From a virus (Duplodnaviria; Caudoviricetes), in IMG/VR virus record IMGVR_UViG_3300037423_000489, positions 1 to 58,866 of that record: a stretch of DNA of 58,866 bases. One strand, given 5' to 3'. Positions within the stretch are counted from its first letter, which is position 1; every line of letters begins with the position of its first letter. Shown here in pieces: positions 2,173 through 29,273 of the stretch. A program made the position numbers and the translations under genes. The notes beneath the pieces are model-generated. The model saw only the letters and a program-made list of their open reading frames with translations. It did no database searches and was not told the origin of the DNA.

Positions 2173-2346
2173 TTGAACATCAAAATTTTTAATATTTGCC
2201 TGCTGATTGGCTGGCTAATGGTCACGATCGGCGGAATGCTTTTGAACGTTGGAGCCGGATTGTGCATTGGCGGCGCATTATTGATTGGATTGACCATCGT
2301 CATGAGCAAAATCGGCGGACTCTTCGTTCAAAAGGATAATCTGTAA
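2173..2346 (+). CDS. Small membrane protein (57 aa) between terL and portal
   Basis: Hand-translated from TTG (MNIKIFNICLLIGWLMVTIGGMLLNVGAGLCIGGALLIGLTIV...); two hydrophobic segments; TAA overlaps portal ATG. Confidence 0.65.
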   Translation: MNIKIFNICLLIGWLMVTIGGMLLNVGAGLCIGGALLIGLTIVMSKIGGLFVQKDNL

Positions 2347-3821
2347 TGTTCTTGAGCGGAATAAAAGCAGAGGACCGTTCGCCGTGGGGCCATTTCTGGT
2401 TTGAGCCAGTTGGCGTGCGTACCGGCAGCGGCGTGCGCGTCACCGCCGATACCGCGCTTACGTTATCTGCAGTATTTCGTGCCGTGTCGCTGGTATCTGG
2501 TCATTTGGCATTGCTGCCAATCCGCTTTTACAAGAAAGGCACACGCCAACAGATCGTCAATCATCCAGTATTGAACCTGCTCAACAAGCGCCCGAATCGC
2601 TGGCAGAACGCTTTCGAGTGGCGCGAGATGATGCAGGGGCATATTGAGCTGCGCGGGAATGCCTACAACGAGATTTATTCGGATGGGCGCGGCGAAATTC
2701 AAGAACTGATCCCGCGTCATCCTGATAAGGTCAAGATCAAGGTTCTTGACAATGGCGATTACAACTATTTGATCACCAATCCGGACGGAACGCAGCGCAC
2801 TGTACCGCGCGGAAGCATCTGGCACATTCGCGGGCTCTCTTCGGATGGAATTGTCGGCTTGGCCGTACTGGAATATGCGCGCGAATCGTTCGGCCTCGGC
2901 ATTGCGGCCAAGAGCTATGGCGCGCGCTTCTTTGCAAACGACGCGAAACCGACAGGCGGTTGGATTGAATACCCTGGCACCTATCGCGACAAGACGCAAA
3001 AGCAGGCGATCCGCGAAACGCTGCAAGACGCACAGAGCGGAATGAATCGCGGCAAGCTCATGATGCTTGACTACGGCATGAAGTATCACGAAGTCGGGCC
3101 CACAAATGAAGACATGCAGTTTTTGGGCACGCAAGAGCACTCGGTAACGGACGTTGCACGCTGGTTCGGCGTGCCGCCGCATAAAATCGGCGCACTGGAC
3201 CGCGCCACGAACAACAATATCGAGCAACAGGCACTTGAATATGTAACCGATGGCCTGATGACGCGCGCCAGCCGCAATGTAGCAGCGATCAAAGCTGATT
3301 TGCTGTTCGACGATGAAGAGTTTGATGTCGAATACGACTTTTCTGAATTCTTGCGCGGCGATTCCACGGCGCTGTCGAACTTTATCACCAAAATGACGAA
3401 CAGCGGCATCCTGACAAGGAACGAAGGTCGCGCGATGGTCGGCAAAGATCCATTGCCAGGACTCGATACACCGTTACTGCCATTGAACATGGTCGAAGAG
3501 CCTGGAAACGATGAGCCTGATAGCGACGATAAGCAACAAAAGCCAGTAAAACAGACACCATCAAGCGACGTTGAAGCATTGCGATCGATCCGACATGCTT
3601 CTGCTGCACGTCTTGCACGGCGCGCCGCCGGTGCATTGGAAAAGAAAAGCGCTGCTGAAGTATTTGATGACGATTTTGCCGAATTAATCGCTGAATCGAT
3701 GGCGGTTCCAGTTGAAAAGGCAAAAAACTGGTGCAGCGGCATGCGATCTTTCAAAAGATGGGATGAATCACAAATTCGCAGCGCATTGATCAGCGAATTC
3801 ATTTTAGAGGTAACAATATGA
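2346..3821 (+). CDS. HK97-family portal protein
   Basis: LLNKRPNRWQNAFEWRE, HIRGLSSDGIVG, ARWFGVPPHKIG, NNIEQQ, LTRNEGR motifs. Confidence 0.95.
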   Translation: MFLSGIKAEDRSPWGHFWFEPVGVRTGSGVRVTADTALTLSAVFRAVSLVSGHLALLPIRFYKKGTRQQIVNHPVLNLLNKRPNRWQNAFEWREMMQGHIELRGNAYNEIYSDGRGEIQELIPRHPDKVKIKVLDNGDYNYLITNPDGTQRTVPRGSIWHIRGLSSDGIVGLAVLEYARESFGLGIAAKSYGARFFANDAKPTGGWIEYPGTYRDKTQKQAIRETLQDAQSGMNRGKLMMLDYGMKYHEVGPTNEDMQFLGTQEHSVTDVARWFGVPPHKIGALDRATNNNIEQQALEYVTDGLMTRASRNVAAIKADLLFDDEEFDVEYDFSEFLRGDSTALSNFITKMTNSGILTRNEGRAMVGKDPLPGLDTPLLPLNMVEEPGNDEPDSDDKQQKPVKQTPSSDVEALRSIRHASAARLARRAAGALEKKSAAEVFDDDFAELIAESMAVPVEKAKNWCSGMRSFKRWDESQIRSALISEFILEVTI

Positions 3822-24202: not shown

Positions 24203-25378
24203 ATGATCCCGACCTATATCGATCCACGCTTGAAAGACTATGCAGCCGGCAGACAGTTGAAATATCTTGAAGCCGTCGAAAAGCATGGAAGCGGCGGCGC
24301 GGCGGCGAAGGTCTTGGGAGTAGCCAAAACAACCATCAACGAGGCGATCAAGGCTGTCAAGCGCAAGGCCGCGAAAATGGGATATAGCCCCGACCACGAT
24401 ATGCTGCGGACGGTGCCGGATGGCTATATGGTGCGCGGCGTATCGACATATTACGACAAGGACGGCAAGCCAACAGCCCAATGGGTAAAAAGCCAGGTCG
24501 ATCAAGAGCGCATGGAGGCGATCATGCGCGAGGCATTTTCCGCGATGTCAGATGAATTGCCACGACAGAAATCGATTGCCACGCCCAAGAACACGATCGA
24601 TGCGCTTTGCAATTTGATCGTTTTCACGGACTACCATCTCGGGCAGTTATCCTGGGGAAAGGAAAGCGGTGCAGATTGGAACTTGAAGATCGCGGAGAAG
24701 CTGCTGACGGACAGTTTTGTGTACATGATCGAAGCGGCGCCACAGGCGAAATCATGCGTCGTTTGTCTGCAGGGTGACTTCCTGCACACCGATGGCCTAT
24801 TGCCACTCACACCCGCGCATAAGAACGTGCTCGATGCAGACAGTCGGTTCTCGAAGATCATTGCTTCAGCCATTAGAGTTATTCGCGTCTTGGTCAATCA
24901 CACGCTGGCAAAGCATCGCTCTGTGCACTTGATCATCTGTGAAGGGAACCACGATGAGGCTAGCTCAATCTGGCTCAGGCAGATGTTCACGGCGCTGTAT
25001 GAGAAAGAACCGCGTATCACCATCAACGATTCAGAATTGCCGTTCTATGTTCATCAGCACGGCGAAACAATGCTGGCTTTTCATCATGGACATAAAGTGA
25101 AAAACGAGCAATTGCCCATGCTCTTTGCTGCACAGTATTCGAAAATATGGGGCGAGACAACCAAGCGATACGCGCATTGCGGTCATAGGCACCACGTAGA
25201 CGAAAAAGAATACGCCGGCATGACCGTAACCCAGCATCCAACATTGGCGGCAAGGGACGCCCACGCTGCGCGCGGCGGCTGGATTTCAGAGAGAGCAGCA
25301 GCTGTGATCACCTATCACAAAAAATTCGGCCAGGTAGCGAGGACGATTGTTTGCCCTGAGATGTTCGGATCGAAATAG
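24203..25378 (+). CDS. HTH plus calcineurin-like metallophosphoesterase
   Basis: N-terminal HTH (GSGGAAAKVLGV); DYH, GDFLH, GNHD, HHGH, GHRH motifs. Confidence 0.85.
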   Translation: MIPTYIDPRLKDYAAGRQLKYLEAVEKHGSGGAAAKVLGVAKTTINEAIKAVKRKAAKMGYSPDHDMLRTVPDGYMVRGVSTYYDKDGKPTAQWVKSQVDQERMEAIMREAFSAMSDELPRQKSIATPKNTIDALCNLIVFTDYHLGQLSWGKESGADWNLKIAEKLLTDSFVYMIEAAPQAKSCVVCLQGDFLHTDGLLPLTPAHKNVLDADSRFSKIIASAIRVIRVLVNHTLAKHRSVHLIICEGNHDEASSIWLRQMFTALYEKEPRITINDSELPFYVHQHGETMLAFHHGHKVKNEQLPMLFAAQYSKIWGETTKRYAHCGHRHHVDEKEYAGMTVTQHPTLAARDAHAARGGWISERAAAVITYHKKFGQVARTIVCPEMFGSK

Positions 25379-25395
25379 CGCAACGGAGGTGTCAC

Positions 25396-25593
25396 ATGCA
25401 AGAACCAAGCAAATGCCAGTGCGGCAAGACACCGACCATCGATATTCGCCATGTGCCACACGGCCACATAATACAAGTGAAATGCCCATGCGGAAACAAA
25501 GGCATTGAGGCGCTCTACAAGCTAGAATCCGATCTTCAGAGAACGATCAAATCCGCTATCGATGCATGGGACATCATGAATATCCCGCTCTGA
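25396..25593 (+). CDS. Small Zn-ribbon protein (Lar-like)
   Basis: GGAGG RBS; CQCG..CPCG..AIDAW. Confidence 0.55.
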   Translation: MQEPSKCQCGKTPTIDIRHVPHGHIIQVKCPCGNKGIEALYKLESDLQRTIKSAIDAWDIMNIPL

Positions 25594-25611
25594 TAGTGCC
25601 ATAATGGGCAC

Positions 25612-25827
25612 ATGAAAATCCCACGCTGTAACCGCCCAGGCTGCCAACCGCATTACCGGCAGCGCGGCTTCACATCAGATACCCACGAAATATCGTGCGG
25701 CCAAACCGGCTGCTTGCGAAAAGTGTCAGAATCGACACAGGAGCAGGCCGTCATCAAATGGATTGAGCTGATCAACAAGCCATTGCCATCGGATTCATCA
25801 AGAGAGCGGTTCGATGACGGATGGTGA
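25612..25827 (+). CDS. Small Cys-containing protein
   Basis: C..C..C..C then AVIKW, similar layout to upstream ORF. Confidence 0.45.
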   Translation: MKIPRCNRPGCQPHYRQRGFTSDTHEISCGQTGCLRKVSESTQEQAVIKWIELINKPLPSDSSRERFDDGW

Positions 25828-25928
25828 TCAATCCGACATATCGTCTTCATCATCAATCCATGTGCGCTTCGTAGGCTTGAGCCAATACGCTGCTAGAAGT
25901 AAAACGCCAAGACCTAAAATCACTTCAG

Positions 25929-26882
25929 TCATTGAAACACCTCATCCATCAATTGTGCAAGCGAGCCGTTATAGGTAGCTTCGCGCAGCCCAGCATTCGG
26001 CACGCTGATACCAACCTGTGACAGATTTGAATAAAGAATGCGCACCTGGCCGTTGAACTCCACCAGATCGACATCCGATGCATTCATCGCCGGATCGCCG
26101 CCATCTAGTGGGGAAATCATTGTCTTGGCCGAGAATTGCCAATGGATCAAATCGGTTGAACGTGAAACATTGGTTGCGTAATAAGTGCCTGTGGCCGATG
26201 GATAGGCAGAAAGGAAGATCAAGTAGTAATAGCCGCCTGAATAACGAATCGTCGGGCATGCCGTGTAATAGCCGATTTCGTACTGGCTGCCTACATCCGA
26301 CCAGTGCACCAGATCAGACGACTGCGCAAATCGCGCATTGAAGCAGACAGCGCCCTGATCGCATACCTCATAGGTCATCGTGTAGCCGTTTGGTGATGTT
26401 GTGACAGAGGTGTTGAATACATGTCGTCCTGCCTGCGCTGAAAGCACGACCGTGCTGGGCGTCCAGGTAACTAGATCCGTGGTAGATGTCATGCTGATCT
26501 GCGTCCGGTTTGTCGTGCCGAACACGTACAGCGTGCCATTGCTGACGATCGCCGAGACAAATTGCAGATTGGCTAAGGTATCGGATAGCAGCGCGGCATC
26601 CGATTGGCGATAAACGACCAGGTGAACGCCGGCAGAATCTGGGCGCGTGCCGACATATAGCAGGTCATTGTTGAACACGACAGGCGTCGCTTCCATGCCC
26701 GATATGGCTGGAAACAGGTTGCCTTTTTGGATCGATGCAAGGGTCGTTGTTGATGCCGTTCGATAGGATGGTGAGGGGCCGCTGTCGGAGCCACCGCCGC
26801 CGCCACATGCCGCTAAAGATAAAGCCAGAAGTACGGTGTAAATCCTGTGTAAATAGAGATGCTTTTTGTCATTTATTGTCAT
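25929..26882 (-). CDS. Lipoprotein with glycosidase-like beta-propeller (moron)
   Basis: Lipobox LAAC plus Gly linker; three S/T-x-DL-x-x-W repeats (TTDLVTW, SSDLVHW, STDLIHW). Confidence 0.75.
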   Translation of the reverse strand: MTINDKKHLYLHRIYTVLLALSLAACGGGGGSDSGPSPSYRTASTTTLASIQKGNLFPAISGMEATPVVFNNDLLYVGTRPDSAGVHLVVYRQSDAALLSDTLANLQFVSAIVSNGTLYVFGTTNRTQISMTSTTDLVTWTPSTVVLSAQAGRHVFNTSVTTSPNGYTMTYEVCDQGAVCFNARFAQSSDLVHWSDVGSQYEIGYYTACPTIRYSGGYYYLIFLSAYPSATGTYYATNVSRSTDLIHWQFSAKTMISPLDGGDPAMNASDVDLVEFNGQVRILYSNLSQVGISVPNAGLREATYNGSLAQLMDEVFQ

Positions 26883-27040
26883 GTCTCGTCGCTAAATAAG
26901 TTATTAAATTCAATAACTTAGAGTGACGTGATATTATTTACTTGCCTTCACACGGCACTGCTAAGTCGTTATTTCATGCGGGTTTTCAGCGTTTCTGTGT
27001 AAATCTTTGTGTAATTTACGCTGAAACTTGAAAGTTTACA
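26836..27040. other. attP: core TGCCTTCACACGGCA (26943-26957) with arm-type repeats
   Basis: Core is a tRNA anticodon stem-loop (CAC); GTGTAAAT at 26836, 26847, 26997 and GTGTAATT at 27009; AT-rich IHF-like spacer; next to integrase. Confidence 0.75.
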
Positions 27041-27050
27041 AGGTTTATTT

Positions 27051-27127
27051 GGGCGGTTAGCTCAGTTGGTTAGAGTGCTGCATTCACATTGCAGAGGTCG
27101 CAGATTCGAATTCTGCACCGCCCACCA
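27051..27127 (+). tRNA. tRNA-Val(CAC)
   Basis: Full cloverleaf: GGGCGGT/ACCGCCC acceptor, CTGCA-TTCACAT-TGCAG anticodon arm, GCAGA-TTCGAAT-TCTGC T arm, encoded CCA. Confidence 0.93.
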
Positions 27128-28069
27128 TCATTTACCAAACGCCTTCTGCAACGCCTTCCTTTGTTGCTCGACTTCAATGTGCGCATAGCGCTCTGTCATC
27201 TTTGGCGTGCTATGTCCTAAAATCTTCCTGATCACTTCCAGTGGCACGCCTGATTTAATTAACAGCGATGCTGTGCTGTGACGGAGATCATGAAAGTTCA
27301 CGTGCTCCATGCCTGCCGATTTTCTGGCGCGCTGGAATCCTGATTTCAAGCCTTCCGCCGTGATTGGAAGCGGCAAGTAATTCAACCAAGGCCGCAGCTG
27401 CTTTGTGATTGGCACTGTGCGCCGCCTCAATGTTTTTGTGTTGCCTGACAAAATGGTGATTTCATCATCGCCAATTTCGGCTTCATTCAATTTCAGGATT
27501 TCGCCGCGCCGCATGCCGGTGTAGACGGCAATCCAGATAGCGGCGCGCACATTCATGCTTGCTCTATCAGCAATTTTCTTTACCTGTTCAATAGACAGAT
27601 ACACTTCACGATGGTTGTTCTCGGGCAGGCGCTTTACACGCTCACCATAATTTATGGAGATGATTTCTCGATCAAATGCAAGCGACAATCCTTTTTTGAT
27701 TGTGCCAAGTGTTCTGTTAATTGTGGCAGGCTTCAATCCCTCTTTGAGTAAACCGTCAATCATTAGCACAGCGCATTTCTTGAACTCGCTGGCACGATAA
27801 CCAACTATCCATTTTTTTGATCTGATGGCATGTAATTCTGCGCTCTCAGGGCTGCGCAAATTCTTTGCATGCTCCATATACAAGTCCATTATCTCAATCA
27901 ATGTTGGATCTGCCGAATATTTACGTGCTTTCAGTGATTGGATTATTTCGGCCTTGATAGTTTCTGCTTCTGTCTTTGTTCCGCCCTTTGGCAAGCGTCG
28001 ATGAACGCGCTGCCGGTCGATGCATACGTTGACATGCCAGTATCCCTCTTTGTCTTTAGTGATAGACAT
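27128..28069 (-). CDS. int: Tyrosine integrase
   Basis: YTGMRRGE, K, FHDLRH, LGH, YAH catalytic residues. Confidence 0.95.
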   Translation of the reverse strand: MSITKDKEGYWHVNVCIDRQRVHRRLPKGGTKTEAETIKAEIIQSLKARKYSADPTLIEIMDLYMEHAKNLRSPESAELHAIRSKKWIVGYRASEFKKCAVLMIDGLLKEGLKPATINRTLGTIKKGLSLAFDREIISINYGERVKRLPENNHREVYLSIEQVKKIADRASMNVRAAIWIAVYTGMRRGEILKLNEAEIGDDEITILSGNTKTLRRRTVPITKQLRPWLNYLPLPITAEGLKSGFQRARKSAGMEHVNFHDLRHSTASLLIKSGVPLEVIRKILGHSTPKMTERYAHIEVEQQRKALQKAFGK

Positions 28070-28236
28070 TTTTCCCTCGATTTAAGCCAGTTCATTACAG
28101 ATTCTAAACTGTATACTTTCTTCCTTTTTCCTGTAGGAATGAATGGAAGGCCTTCTTTCTCAAGGCGCTCGACTTGCCTTGAACTGACATGCAAAGTATC
28201 GGCAACTTCCTGTTTAGTTAAAAAAACTGCGCTCAT
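27943..28236 (-). CDS. xis: Excisionase-like HTH protein
   Basis: FLTKQEVADTLHVSSRQV..GLP MerR-like HTH; overlaps int 5' end. Confidence 0.75.
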   Translation of the reverse strand: MSAVFLTKQEVADTLHVSSRQVERLEKEGLPFIPTGKRKKVYSLESVMNWLKSREKCLSLKTKRDTGMSTYASTGSAFIDACQRAEQRQKQKLSRPK

Positions 28237-28318
28237 TTCCCTCTCCACCTAAAAATCCACTCAACCACCAGCCATCCAACCAGAGCCAACAGAGACACCC
28301 ATATTGGAACTGTTTGCA

Positions 28319-28534
28319 TTATGTGTCTCGCTCATCCATATACACATCACCATTCCACGCACGCCCAGCAGCATCACGCGGCCATGTTCCACCTAGCTTC
28401 TTGCGCGCCTCATAGCTTGGTCCTTGTGCACCACAATTGCCGCACTCGCCGTGATACGAGTGCCCAAATACGCCGAGTTCAACACTGACATCTGTTGATC
28501 AGCAAAACGGACATGCTCGTAGTTTTTCGCTCAC
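28319..28534 (-). pseudogene. Lar-like Zn-ribbon gene with in-frame TGA at codon 12
   Basis: Hand translation MSEKLRACPFC*STDV..CGNCGAQGP..AWN; TGA at 28499-28501. Confidence 0.7.
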
Positions 28535-28589
28535 TTCACACCCCACGCTTCCTTCGATTTTGCGATTACCTTCATAGCTTGTTGGATCA

Positions 28590-28763
28590 TCATTGTCCTT
28601 CCGGCCAAACAAGTGCATCAGCCTTACCGCGTAATACAAGCCATGCAGACTTCCACCTGTTTATAGAAGGCCCGCGTTCCGGCCTAGCTGGCACCCACTT
28701 GCCATTGATTTGTACGGAGCATGTACTTATGCTTGCTATGAGTTTTTGAAGTGTCCAAGTCAT
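28590..28763 (-). CDS. Hypothetical protein (57 aa)
   Basis: Hand translation MTWTLQKL..INGKWVPARP..AWLVLRGKADALVWP; AAGGA RBS. Confidence 0.65.
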   Translation of the reverse strand: MTWTLQKLIASISTCSVQINGKWVPARPERGPSINRWKSAWLVLRGKADALVWPEGQ

Positions 28764-28790
28764 ATCATTCCTTCCGTTGTGCTGCTTCAG

Positions 28791-29273
28791 TCATGCTGCC
28801 AATTTCTCTTTCGTGTTCATGAATGTTATCCAGTGCGTGTTTGCCTGCTTGCCTGACTTGTGACCGAATAGCGGCCGCCGATCTGTCAGGGCTAAAATCT
28901 CGCTGGTTTTGATTTGGACTTCTGCCCATTTAAAAATAAGAATCCCATCCTCTTCCAACACGCGAAAACACTCAGAAAATCCAAGCCGCAAGTCTGTTCG
29001 CCAATCTTCGCCAAGTACGCCGTATTTCTTTGCAAGCCAGCTATTTTTACCAGCCTTCATCAAATGTGGCGGGTCAAACACAACCAGCTTAAAACTGCCA
29101 TCGTCAAACGGCATCTTTCTGAAATCAATATTCATGTCTGGCTTGATTTCCAATGCGCGACCGTCACACAGGATATGATCTTCGCTTCGAATGTCACCAA
29201 ACAGAACACCTTGATTCTCAGGATCGAACCAGAACATGCGACTTCCGCAGCATGGATCGAGAATCTTTTTCAT
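28791..29273 (-). CDS. SAM-dependent (probably DNA amino-) methyltransferase
   Basis: ILDPCCGSRMFW SAM motif and VVFDPPH catalytic-type motif; GGAG RBS. Confidence 0.85.
   Translation of the reverse strand: MKKILDPCCGSRMFWFDPENQGVLFGDIRSEDHILCDGRALEIKPDMNIDFRKMPFDDGSFKLVVFDPPHLMKAGKNSWLAKKYGVLGEDWRTDLRLGFSECFRVLEEDGILIFKWAEVQIKTSEILALTDRRPLFGHKSGKQANTHWITFMNTKEKLAA

Follow-up and report, generated by a model that had tools for sequence, protein, structure and literature searches.

A temperate tailed phage represented by IMG/VR virus record IMGVR_UViG_3300037423_000489 very probably establishes itself by tRNA-dependent lysogeny, in which integration splits a host transfer RNA (tRNA) gene, here tRNA-Val(CAC), and the phage brings along a spare. 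The window considered here is the whole of that record, 58,866 bp in length and estimated to be 96% complete. Its phage attachment site (attP) is built around a 15-bp common core, TGCCTTCACACGGCA, at 26943-26957 on the plus strand, which reads TGCC-TTCACAC-GGCA as a 4-bp stem enclosing the 7-nt loop TTCACAC and is identical to the anticodon arm of host tRNA-Val(CAC). In one metagenome run, prophage junctions switch between host and phage DNA at the two ends of this core, and in G001, a bacterial genome that carries a related prophage, the parts of a split tRNA-Val(CAC) gene are accompanied by a complete spare tRNA. Together, these observations support a proposal made in a preliminary description of the sequence, namely that the strategy is used by a betaproteobacterial-type phage.

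The attachment core and its prophage junctions

Parts of the region 25000-29000 are held by seven soil or rhizosphere metagenome runs, of which four (X1-X4) were mapped and three (X5-X7) hold small shares. X1 and X2, the possible sources of the record, contain the unbroken attP form, with 26000-27125 on one contig. X3 comes from another sample and study, shares 0.96 of words, and holds two records in which phage sequence is joined to foreign DNA. Record 19 (289 nt) opens with 106 foreign letters ending ...CTTCGGTCGGTTAGCTCAGGGGTAGAGCAC (tail ...GGTCGGTTAGCTCAGGGGTAGAGCAC) and continues as window 26943-27125 with 0 differences, while record 18 (203 nt) follows window 26791-26957 with 1 difference before changing to 36 foreign letters starting GGGGTCGCAAGTTCGAAACTTGCACCGACC. 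What the two records carry besides phage DNA is a single tRNA in two halves, 5' in record 19 and 3' in record 18, whose acceptor strands, GGTCGGT and ACCGACC, are complementary. Since the bases just outside the 15-mer differ between the window (T at 26942, C at 26958) and the host (C and G), the common core is exactly 26943-26957. Recombination at the core and splitting of the host gene can be read directly from these contigs: host tRNA-Val(CAC) is divided into a 5' part at the left prophage junction (attL) and a 3' part at the right junction (attR) and is not rebuilt, the X3 attL running on into non-tRNA phage DNA. In agreement with the preliminary description, the junctions lie on the 15-mer, with switches at 26943 and 26957, and not at the 3' end of the phage tRNA. 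Both records are Logan contigs, which are built from 31-letter words; to judge from the description of the word index, an overlap of 15 letters could not have created such joins by mis-assembly. A search of metagenome_contigs for the exact 32-mer that follows the core on the right gave no match and hence no longer attL contig.

Two further features of the mapped runs deserve mention. X4 contains a relative diverged by a few percent, with 16-20 differences per record over 26670-28000; its G>T change at 26944 breaks one stem pair of the core, and 26958-27127, including the tRNA, is unchanged. In all four mapped runs, the stretch 27096-27127, corresponding to the T arm and acceptor end of the phage tRNA, is overlain by numerous very short contigs with depths of 85-390, as against 7-29 for the phage. 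Their loose ends come from other tRNA-like sequences, such as ...AATACTTGGTCGACATCCAAGG ahead of 27096. In its 3' third, the phage tRNA is thus identical to abundant tRNAs of other soil organisms, which may hint at its origin.

Within the window, the core stands between paired repeats. Two copies of GTGTAAAT lie on its left, or P, arm (26836-26843 and 26847-26854), and one copy each of GTGTAAAT and GTGTAATT lies on its right, or P', arm (26997-27004 and 27009-27016), all on the plus strand; they are putative arm-type integrase binding sites. These four co-oriented GTGTAAWT repeats represent four of the five GTGTAAWT sites of the whole window. To the right of the core, the DNA continues as CTGCTAAGTCG..., which is not the 3' part of a tRNA to judge from the sequence and from ARAGORN and Rfam, which find one tRNA only, and the phage flanks on the right (CTGCTAAG...) and left (...TATTTACT) are both non-tRNA. 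A conventional tRNA-restoring attP carries tRNA sequence from the crossover to the 3' end, and the window does not. The preliminary description of a core between paired repeats, with no tRNA 3' half behind it, was accurate in every element. Strand exchange presumably takes place in the 7-nt loop.

The sole tRNA of the window, according to ARAGORN, is a complete tRNA-Val(CAC) at 27051-27127 (plus strand), 77 nt long with an encoded CCA (Rfam RF00005, 69.6 bits). It folds as a cloverleaf (-30.4 kcal/mol, z -3.2), and its anticodon, 27085-27087, sits in the anticodon arm CTGCA-TTCACAT-TGCAG at 27078-27094. A complete tRNA of the same orientation but with a different stem had been placed about 95 bp downstream of the core, and the gap proves to be 93 nt. 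The CCA end directly abuts the complement of the stop codon of a tyrosine integrase gene (27128-28069, minus strand, 313 amino acids; PF00589, E 2.3e-25, 89.8 bits versus a cut-off of 27.1), homologues of which, at 45-55% identity, adjoin tRNA-Val(CAC). Taken alone, the 15-mer is statistically weak, with one match at up to two mismatches against 0.20 expected and at least one match in 18 of 100 shuffles. The total count of GTGTAAWT is equally unremarkable (5 versus 2.81 expected; 12 of 100 shuffles reach 5). Since neither carries weight alone, the case rests on context and comparison, and what is not due to chance is the clustering of the repeats, the homology to attP of relatives and the junction contigs.

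The core is also found where a host attachment site (attB) would be sought. Of 401 genomes sampled from the GTDB order to which Duganella sp. CT11-25 belongs, 176 contain the 15-mer (173 of 398 without the three of the 176 that are unpublished) and none its reversed control; roughly 23 of the 176, counted by hand, contain it two or three times. All 33 sites in the 30 loci read fall in tRNA-Val(CAC) genes, two of which are cut by contig ends, and the double sites read (L143, L144, L146) are tandem tRNA-Val(CAC) genes. Within the family of Duganella sp. CT11-25, the 15-mer is present in 18 of 121 genomes, with 18 of 18 sites in tRNA-Val(CAC) genes, so that it is the anticodon arm of this tRNA in 48 of 48 genome loci read. 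The expectation that host tRNA-Val(CAC) genes carry the core is thereby confirmed. The X3 host tRNA halves agree with two Duganella-family genomes (L149, L152) at all positions but those of a single compensated acceptor pair. The tRNA sequences suggest that the host is probably a member or neighbour of this GTDB family, and the betaproteobacterial, Oxalobacteraceae-like host originally envisaged remains plausible. Three loci (L151, L154, L162) have GTACGGAAAAAGTACG-type repeats after the tRNA-Val(CAC) terminator; these are probably arm sites of a different integrase family using the same tRNA gene. As regards tRNA length, the phage tRNA has 77 nt and that of its host 75 nt. Among genomes sampled from the order (L117-L124), some have a 77-nt tRNA-Val(CAC) with a longer D loop and others the 75-nt form; the 77-nt tRNA adjoins a tRNA-Asp gene in L119, L122 and L123, the three checked by ARAGORN.

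Restoring and non-restoring sites in one integrase clade

An integrase scan of species-representative genomes yielded 80 loci, 11 of which were scanned with ARAGORN. A tRNA-Val(CAC) convergent with the integrase was found in eight (L002, L003, L004, L005, L007, L008, L009, L048), L006 with its more distant integrase has a tRNA-Phe instead, and L010 and L047 gave no complete tRNA. In L005, from a Rhodoferax metagenome-assembled genome (MAG), about 80 bp with GTGTAAAT and GTGTAATT repeats precede the integrase-adjacent tRNA, and upstream of these repeats lies a tRNA-Val 5' part that ends after the anticodon arm. L047 is a conventional attP, in which the anticodon arm is followed by the rest of the tRNA and then by int, and L007 is the matching attL. 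The flanks of these three loci imply that the integrase clade recombines at the anticodon arm.

The genome that contains L005 (G001) was searched with a Curvibacter tRNA-Val and gave three matches, all on contig C4. The first, at 121940-121980, is the 5' part of the host tRNA (tRNA positions 1-41); the second, at 122062-122136, is a complete but diverged tRNA-Val(CAC) with the stem CCACA/TGTGG, followed by the integrase; the third, at 166864-166911, is the 3' part of the host tRNA (positions 28-75), 100% identical and followed by a terminator. Both halves contain GCATTCACACTGCA, so that the gene is interrupted by a prophage of about 44.9 kb. The 3.7-Mb MAG, which may be incomplete, gave no further tRNA-Val(CAC) match. 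At attL and attR of this prophage, too, the phage sequence beyond the core is non-tRNA. On the left side of attR there are GTGTAATT-type repeats, and TTACTG to the left of the core resembles TTACTT in the window; to the right of the core, ATGCGCTAAGG at attL resembles CTGCTAAGTC in the window. These similar flanks and repeats indicate that the 15-mer region of the window is homologous to the proven attP core of G001. The window core differs from the G001 core by a compensated stem change, GCA..TGC to GCC..GGC, which fits a host with a CTGCC/GGCAG stem. The neighbours of the G001 integrase encode RecT, a RecE-like exonuclease and a methyltransferase, and just inside attR (L082:4-1044) lies a transposase open reading frame (ORF; phrog_5749, E 2.9e-95).

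How widely this layout occurs was surveyed by reading 12 of 29 IMG/VR loci and 19 of 80 metagenome loci in addition to the genome loci and the window. The variant form, in which the core alone is followed by P' repeats, a complete tRNA-Val(CAC) and int, is represented by the window, L005, L088, L093, L096 and L179 (nearly L096). The tRNA 3' part is retained in attP, and the retrieved DNA lacks a complete tRNA, in L047, L090, L092, L098, L099, L165, L167, L168 (the same as L167), L171, L172, L180 (nearly L098) and L182, as well as in two IMG/VR loci, L091 and L097, whose tRNA 3' fragment and arm repeats run opposite to the integrase, so that attP is inverted relative to int. The attL form, with a complete tRNA and host flank, is present in L002, L003, L004, L007, L008, L009, L048, L095, L166, L169, L170, L173, L175, L176, L178, L183 and L190. 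The remaining loci are uninformative: L089, L094 and L174 are cut by contig ends, L177 has the tRNA 3' part but is cut on the 5' side, and L010 and L006 complete the group. A spare tRNA accompanies loss of the 3' part in six of six rows (five distinct elements) as against none of the 14 rows that keep the 3' part, the rows being phylogenetically non-independent. In the variant rows, the spare tRNA always lies between the P' repeats and int, at a spacing of 0 nt from the integrase in the window, L093 and L096. The integrase tree, built from 19 rows, does not group the variant rows together but intersperses them with conventional ones; L098 is the partner of L005 (support 87/94) and L095 that of L093 (88/77), and the branch of the window is long and unresolved.

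Arm repeats are a common property of these sites. The relatives have two or three copies of GTGTAAWT or GTGCAAWT some 70-130 nt to the left of their cores, and in all relatives read a P' repeat pair lies between core and integrase. The conventional sites of the clade (L047/L007, L090, L092, L098, L099, L165, L167, L171, L172 and L182), whose integrases are 45-55% identical to that of the window, share with it the tRNA-Val(CAC) target, the crossover region (identity from 3 nt left of the loop) and the GTGTAAWT repeats. They differ in that attP reaches the CCA through the tRNA 3' part, usually with a terminator, that attL is a complete tRNA and that an additional tRNA is lacking; core and P' repeats are about 75-115 nt apart, compared with about 38-49 nt in the variant form. 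An anticodon-loop class of tRNA-restoring attP is said to have been distinguished by Williams in 2002.

Proposed mechanism and competing explanations

In the proposed mechanism, a lambda-type tyrosine integrase recombines the 15-bp core with the identical anticodon arm of host tRNA-Val(CAC). Because attP has no tRNA sequence beyond the arm, the host gene is cut, as the junctions show, with its 5' part at attL, its 3' part at attR and a tRNA at neither junction. The phage tRNA would come to lie 93 nt beyond the host 5' part, oriented like it, replace the lost gene and probably be transcribed from the host tRNA promoter. Its altered anticodon arm, which differs from the core at 3 of 15 positions, would probably prevent integrase-mediated recombination between attP and the tRNA that the phage itself carries.

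That the host promoter drives the phage tRNA may reasonably be inferred from the layout. In each of the five elements, the spare tRNA follows the core in the same orientation, and at attL it is thus found 80-95 nt beyond the 5' part of the host gene. The last arm repeat is 1-13 nt from the tRNA in four relatives and 34 nt in the window, a short spacing that leaves little room for a dedicated promoter. By eye, an ATAAT motif can be seen 30-60 nt upstream of the host tRNA genes read.

Several points weigh against tRNA-dependent lysogeny. The junction evidence consists of two Logan contigs from one run among the records listed, and an attP-form contig may also exist in X3. A weak terminator-like hairpin, at chance level, occupies 26952-26969, between the host 5' part and the phage tRNA. 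A promoter scan gave no sigma-70-like site between core and tRNA, and none upstream of the L084 host tRNA despite a visible ATAAT; having given nothing even there, the scan says little either way. The tRNA of L093 retains 13 nt (GCATTCACACTGC) of its own core, a finding unfavourable to exclusion of the integrase by stem changes. Finally, in some bacteria a tRNA-Val(UAC) with a modified wobble base reads GUG, and loss of tRNA-Val(CAC) might be tolerated.

A conventional attP, with its core in the 3' part of the phage tRNA (27051-27127), a rebuilt host tRNA and a 15-mer that is a chance match or relic, was the first working idea and was dropped on reading of the flanks and the junction contigs. 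While the tRNA does lie directly against the integrase stop in an orientation typical of attL, homologous integrases in genomes do adjoin complete tRNA-Val(CAC) and the 15-mer alone is statistically uncompelling, this explanation is scarcely credible because the X3 contigs pass between host and phage at the ends of the core and then run unbroken to 27125. In addition, the 15-mer can be aligned with the cores of G001, L088, L093 and L096, whose flanks and repeats are similar, and the breaks at 27096-27127 come from short deep contigs of other tRNAs that share the T arm, with no single host locus. It is improbable, too, that the site works as described but that the tRNA replaces nothing, serving instead to supply codons during lytic growth or to counter a host nuclease that cuts tRNA-Val, with another tRNA-Val reading GUG. 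Loss of the 3' part is linked to a complete tRNA of the same anticodon (the six of six against none of 14 rows above), its position and orientation are constant just inside attL, tRNA-Val(CAC) is the phage's only tRNA, and the spare of G001 is the only complete tRNA-Val(CAC) found there. In favour of such a role, the 77-nt window tRNA has a D loop unlike that of the host's 75-nt tRNA and an anticodon loop that ends in T rather than C, and functions of this kind have been proposed for phage tRNAs in the discussion of PMC10865867.

Turning to the altered anticodon stem, each of the five distinct elements has a tRNA that differs from its own core by compensated stem changes. In the window, the core TGCC-TTCACAC-GGCA faces TGCA-TTCACAT-TGCA in the tRNA, one of the differing positions being in the loop. 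The corresponding pairs are GCA..TGC and CCACA..TGTGG in G001, CTGCC..GGCAG and CTACC..GGTAG in L088, TTGCA..TGCAA and TCGCA..TGCGA in L093, and ACA..TGC and CCACC..GGTGG in L096. In four of the five, the change falls in the 3 bp adjoining the loop, the smallest stretch over which attP and attB are identical across the clade; at conventional attPs, identity starts at GCA or GCC. The G001 spare has the host's 5' acceptor strand, D arm and most of the 3' acceptor strand with altered anticodon and T stems, and the L093 tRNA shares acceptor strands and D arm with the L048 tRNA and is changed in the same two stems. To judge from these comparisons, the pattern fits selection against recombination with the host gene or attP.

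Alternatively, the different stem may be non-adaptive, the tRNA-Val(CAC) having been captured from a bacterium in which the stem is naturally different. This is a serious contender, only a little short of evenly balanced. The CTGCA/TGCAG stem of the window tRNA is natural in tRNA-Val(CAC) of Duganella, Curvibacter and Rhodoferax, and with the CTGCC form limited to 176 of the 401 genomes sampled, a donor picked at random would frequently have another stem. The 13 nt of core kept by the L093 tRNA also suit capture, and in other studies, as far as those sources go, the phage copy is closest to tRNAs of other species. Capture fits less well with compensated differences in five of five elements, four of them within the 3 bp next to the loop, or with spares that share acceptor strands and D arm with the host (G001) or with L048 (L093), yet are changed in the anticodon and T stems. 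A bolder extension of tRNA-dependent lysogeny, rather unlikely and put forward tentatively, would see the cassette of core, P' repeats, tRNA and int as an evolved promoter-capture module. A promoterless tRNA would be expressed only once integration puts it behind the host tRNA-Val promoter, coupling its supply to integration, antisense read-through past the tRNA would damp int in the lysogen, the compensated changes in the anticodon and T stems would block integrase-mediated or homologous recombination with the split gene, and the module would have arisen or moved repeatedly among Burkholderiales phages.

Genomic setting and relation to known systems

The gene order of the window is that of a temperate tailed phage, with the large terminase at 476-2164 and the portal at 2346-3821, followed by long tail genes. 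The stretch 26836-28248 is in all likelihood its integration module, a judgement that belongs with the reading of the whole as tRNA-dependent lysogeny, and the integrase precedes a leftward early region that includes a DNA methyltransferase. Overlapping the integrase start, a helix-turn-helix ORF of 101 amino acids (27943-28248, minus strand) is a possible excisionase. The assignment is weak: PF12728 (HTH_17) matches with E 3.2e-4, below the Pfam cut-off, and phrog_66 (excisionase) with E 3.6e-6, alongside phrog_57 (small terminase) with E 2.4e-7. The lambda-type features are therewith this weak match and the four repeats flanking the core, conserved in relatives, as putative arm sites. On the other side of the core, separated from the tRNA by a 168-bp intergenic stretch, an ORF of 317 amino acids (25929-26882, minus strand) has a weak glycosyl hydrolase family 43 match (E 2.6e-4, below cut-off), no PHROG match and a lipoprotein-type N-terminus (...LLALSLAACGGGGG). 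It starts 60 bp from the attP core, has the P-arm repeats inside its first codons and, positioned at the attR end of the prophage, may serve lysogenic conversion. A megablast of 25900-28100 against a phage collection gave no match, and when the entire window was compared with the 80 genome loci by blastn, only the tRNA and, weakly, the integrase were matched.

The term tRNA-dependent lysogeny was defined in 2024 for actinobacteriophages (Guerrero-Bustamante & Hatfull, mBio; PMC10865867). According to the parts of that paper drawn upon here, the published systems are Fionnbharth (K4), Cluster L, Cain (K6), Gaia (X) and the Gordonia clusters CQ2 and DL, the targets are Lys-TTT, Ile2-CAT and Leu-CAA, and the requirement for lysogeny was shown experimentally. 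Four of the five defining features are present here, namely a tyrosine integrase, attB in a host tRNA, a 15-bp core without tRNA restoration and a phage tRNA of the same anticodon; the fifth, complementation by a phage tRNA that lysogens need in place of an essential host tRNA, would have indirect backing in the strict association of the two features within the clade and in the lack of another tRNA-Val(CAC) match in G001. As described in the same source, actinobacteriophages share with the window a tyrosine integrase, arm-type sites (putative here), attB at the anticodon loop and a phage tRNA of the same anticodon. Their common cores measure 8-17 bp, compared with 15 bp here, no tRNA is rebuilt in either case, and both groups include near relatives whose core is long and which lack a phage tRNA, the trait being scattered in the integrase tree. 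They differ in host (Actinobacteria versus Burkholderiales-type Gram-negative bacteria), in target (Lys-TTT, Ile2-CAT and Leu-CAA versus tRNA-Val(CAC)) and in the placing of the spare tRNA, which here is always in the P' arm and co-oriented with the split gene, whereas that of Fionnbharth overlaps gene 37 and has been shown to possess a promoter of its own. The requirement for the tRNA has been demonstrated in actinobacteriophages and is presumed here.

Related reports exist for other bacteria. In Sinorhizobium meliloti, prophages interrupt tRNA-Leu(UAG) without rebuilding it and carry a tRNA of the same kind, according to bioinformatic reports consulted in part (PMC11476347, PMC12429752); the hosts, tRNAs and integrases are other than those of the window. 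A similar report concerns Lj965, as cited in PMC10865867. A literature search within one paper collection, judged by the titles listed, found nothing on tRNA-dependent lysogeny in betaproteobacterial phages or at tRNA-Val(CAC). The phage is clearly a new example of a known strategy, which it extends to another bacterial group and another tRNA.

The discoverers of the strategy asked, in the portion of their paper cited here, how common it is beyond actinobacteriophages (PMC10865867). The present case extends it to soil phages of Gram-negative, Burkholderiales-type hosts and to tRNA-Val(CAC), experimental proof having so far come from actinobacteriophages only. Since restoring and non-restoring attachment sites are interleaved in one integrase clade, they provide natural pairs for studying how the switch evolved. 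For prophage annotation, boundary tools that seek a long tRNA 3' repeat would put attL at the phage tRNA and miss the 15-bp junction by about 100-170 bp. The small cassette could serve as an integration vector in these bacteria. Moreover, by overwriting a host tRNA gene with a diverged copy, such phages would provide one route of tRNA gene turnover.

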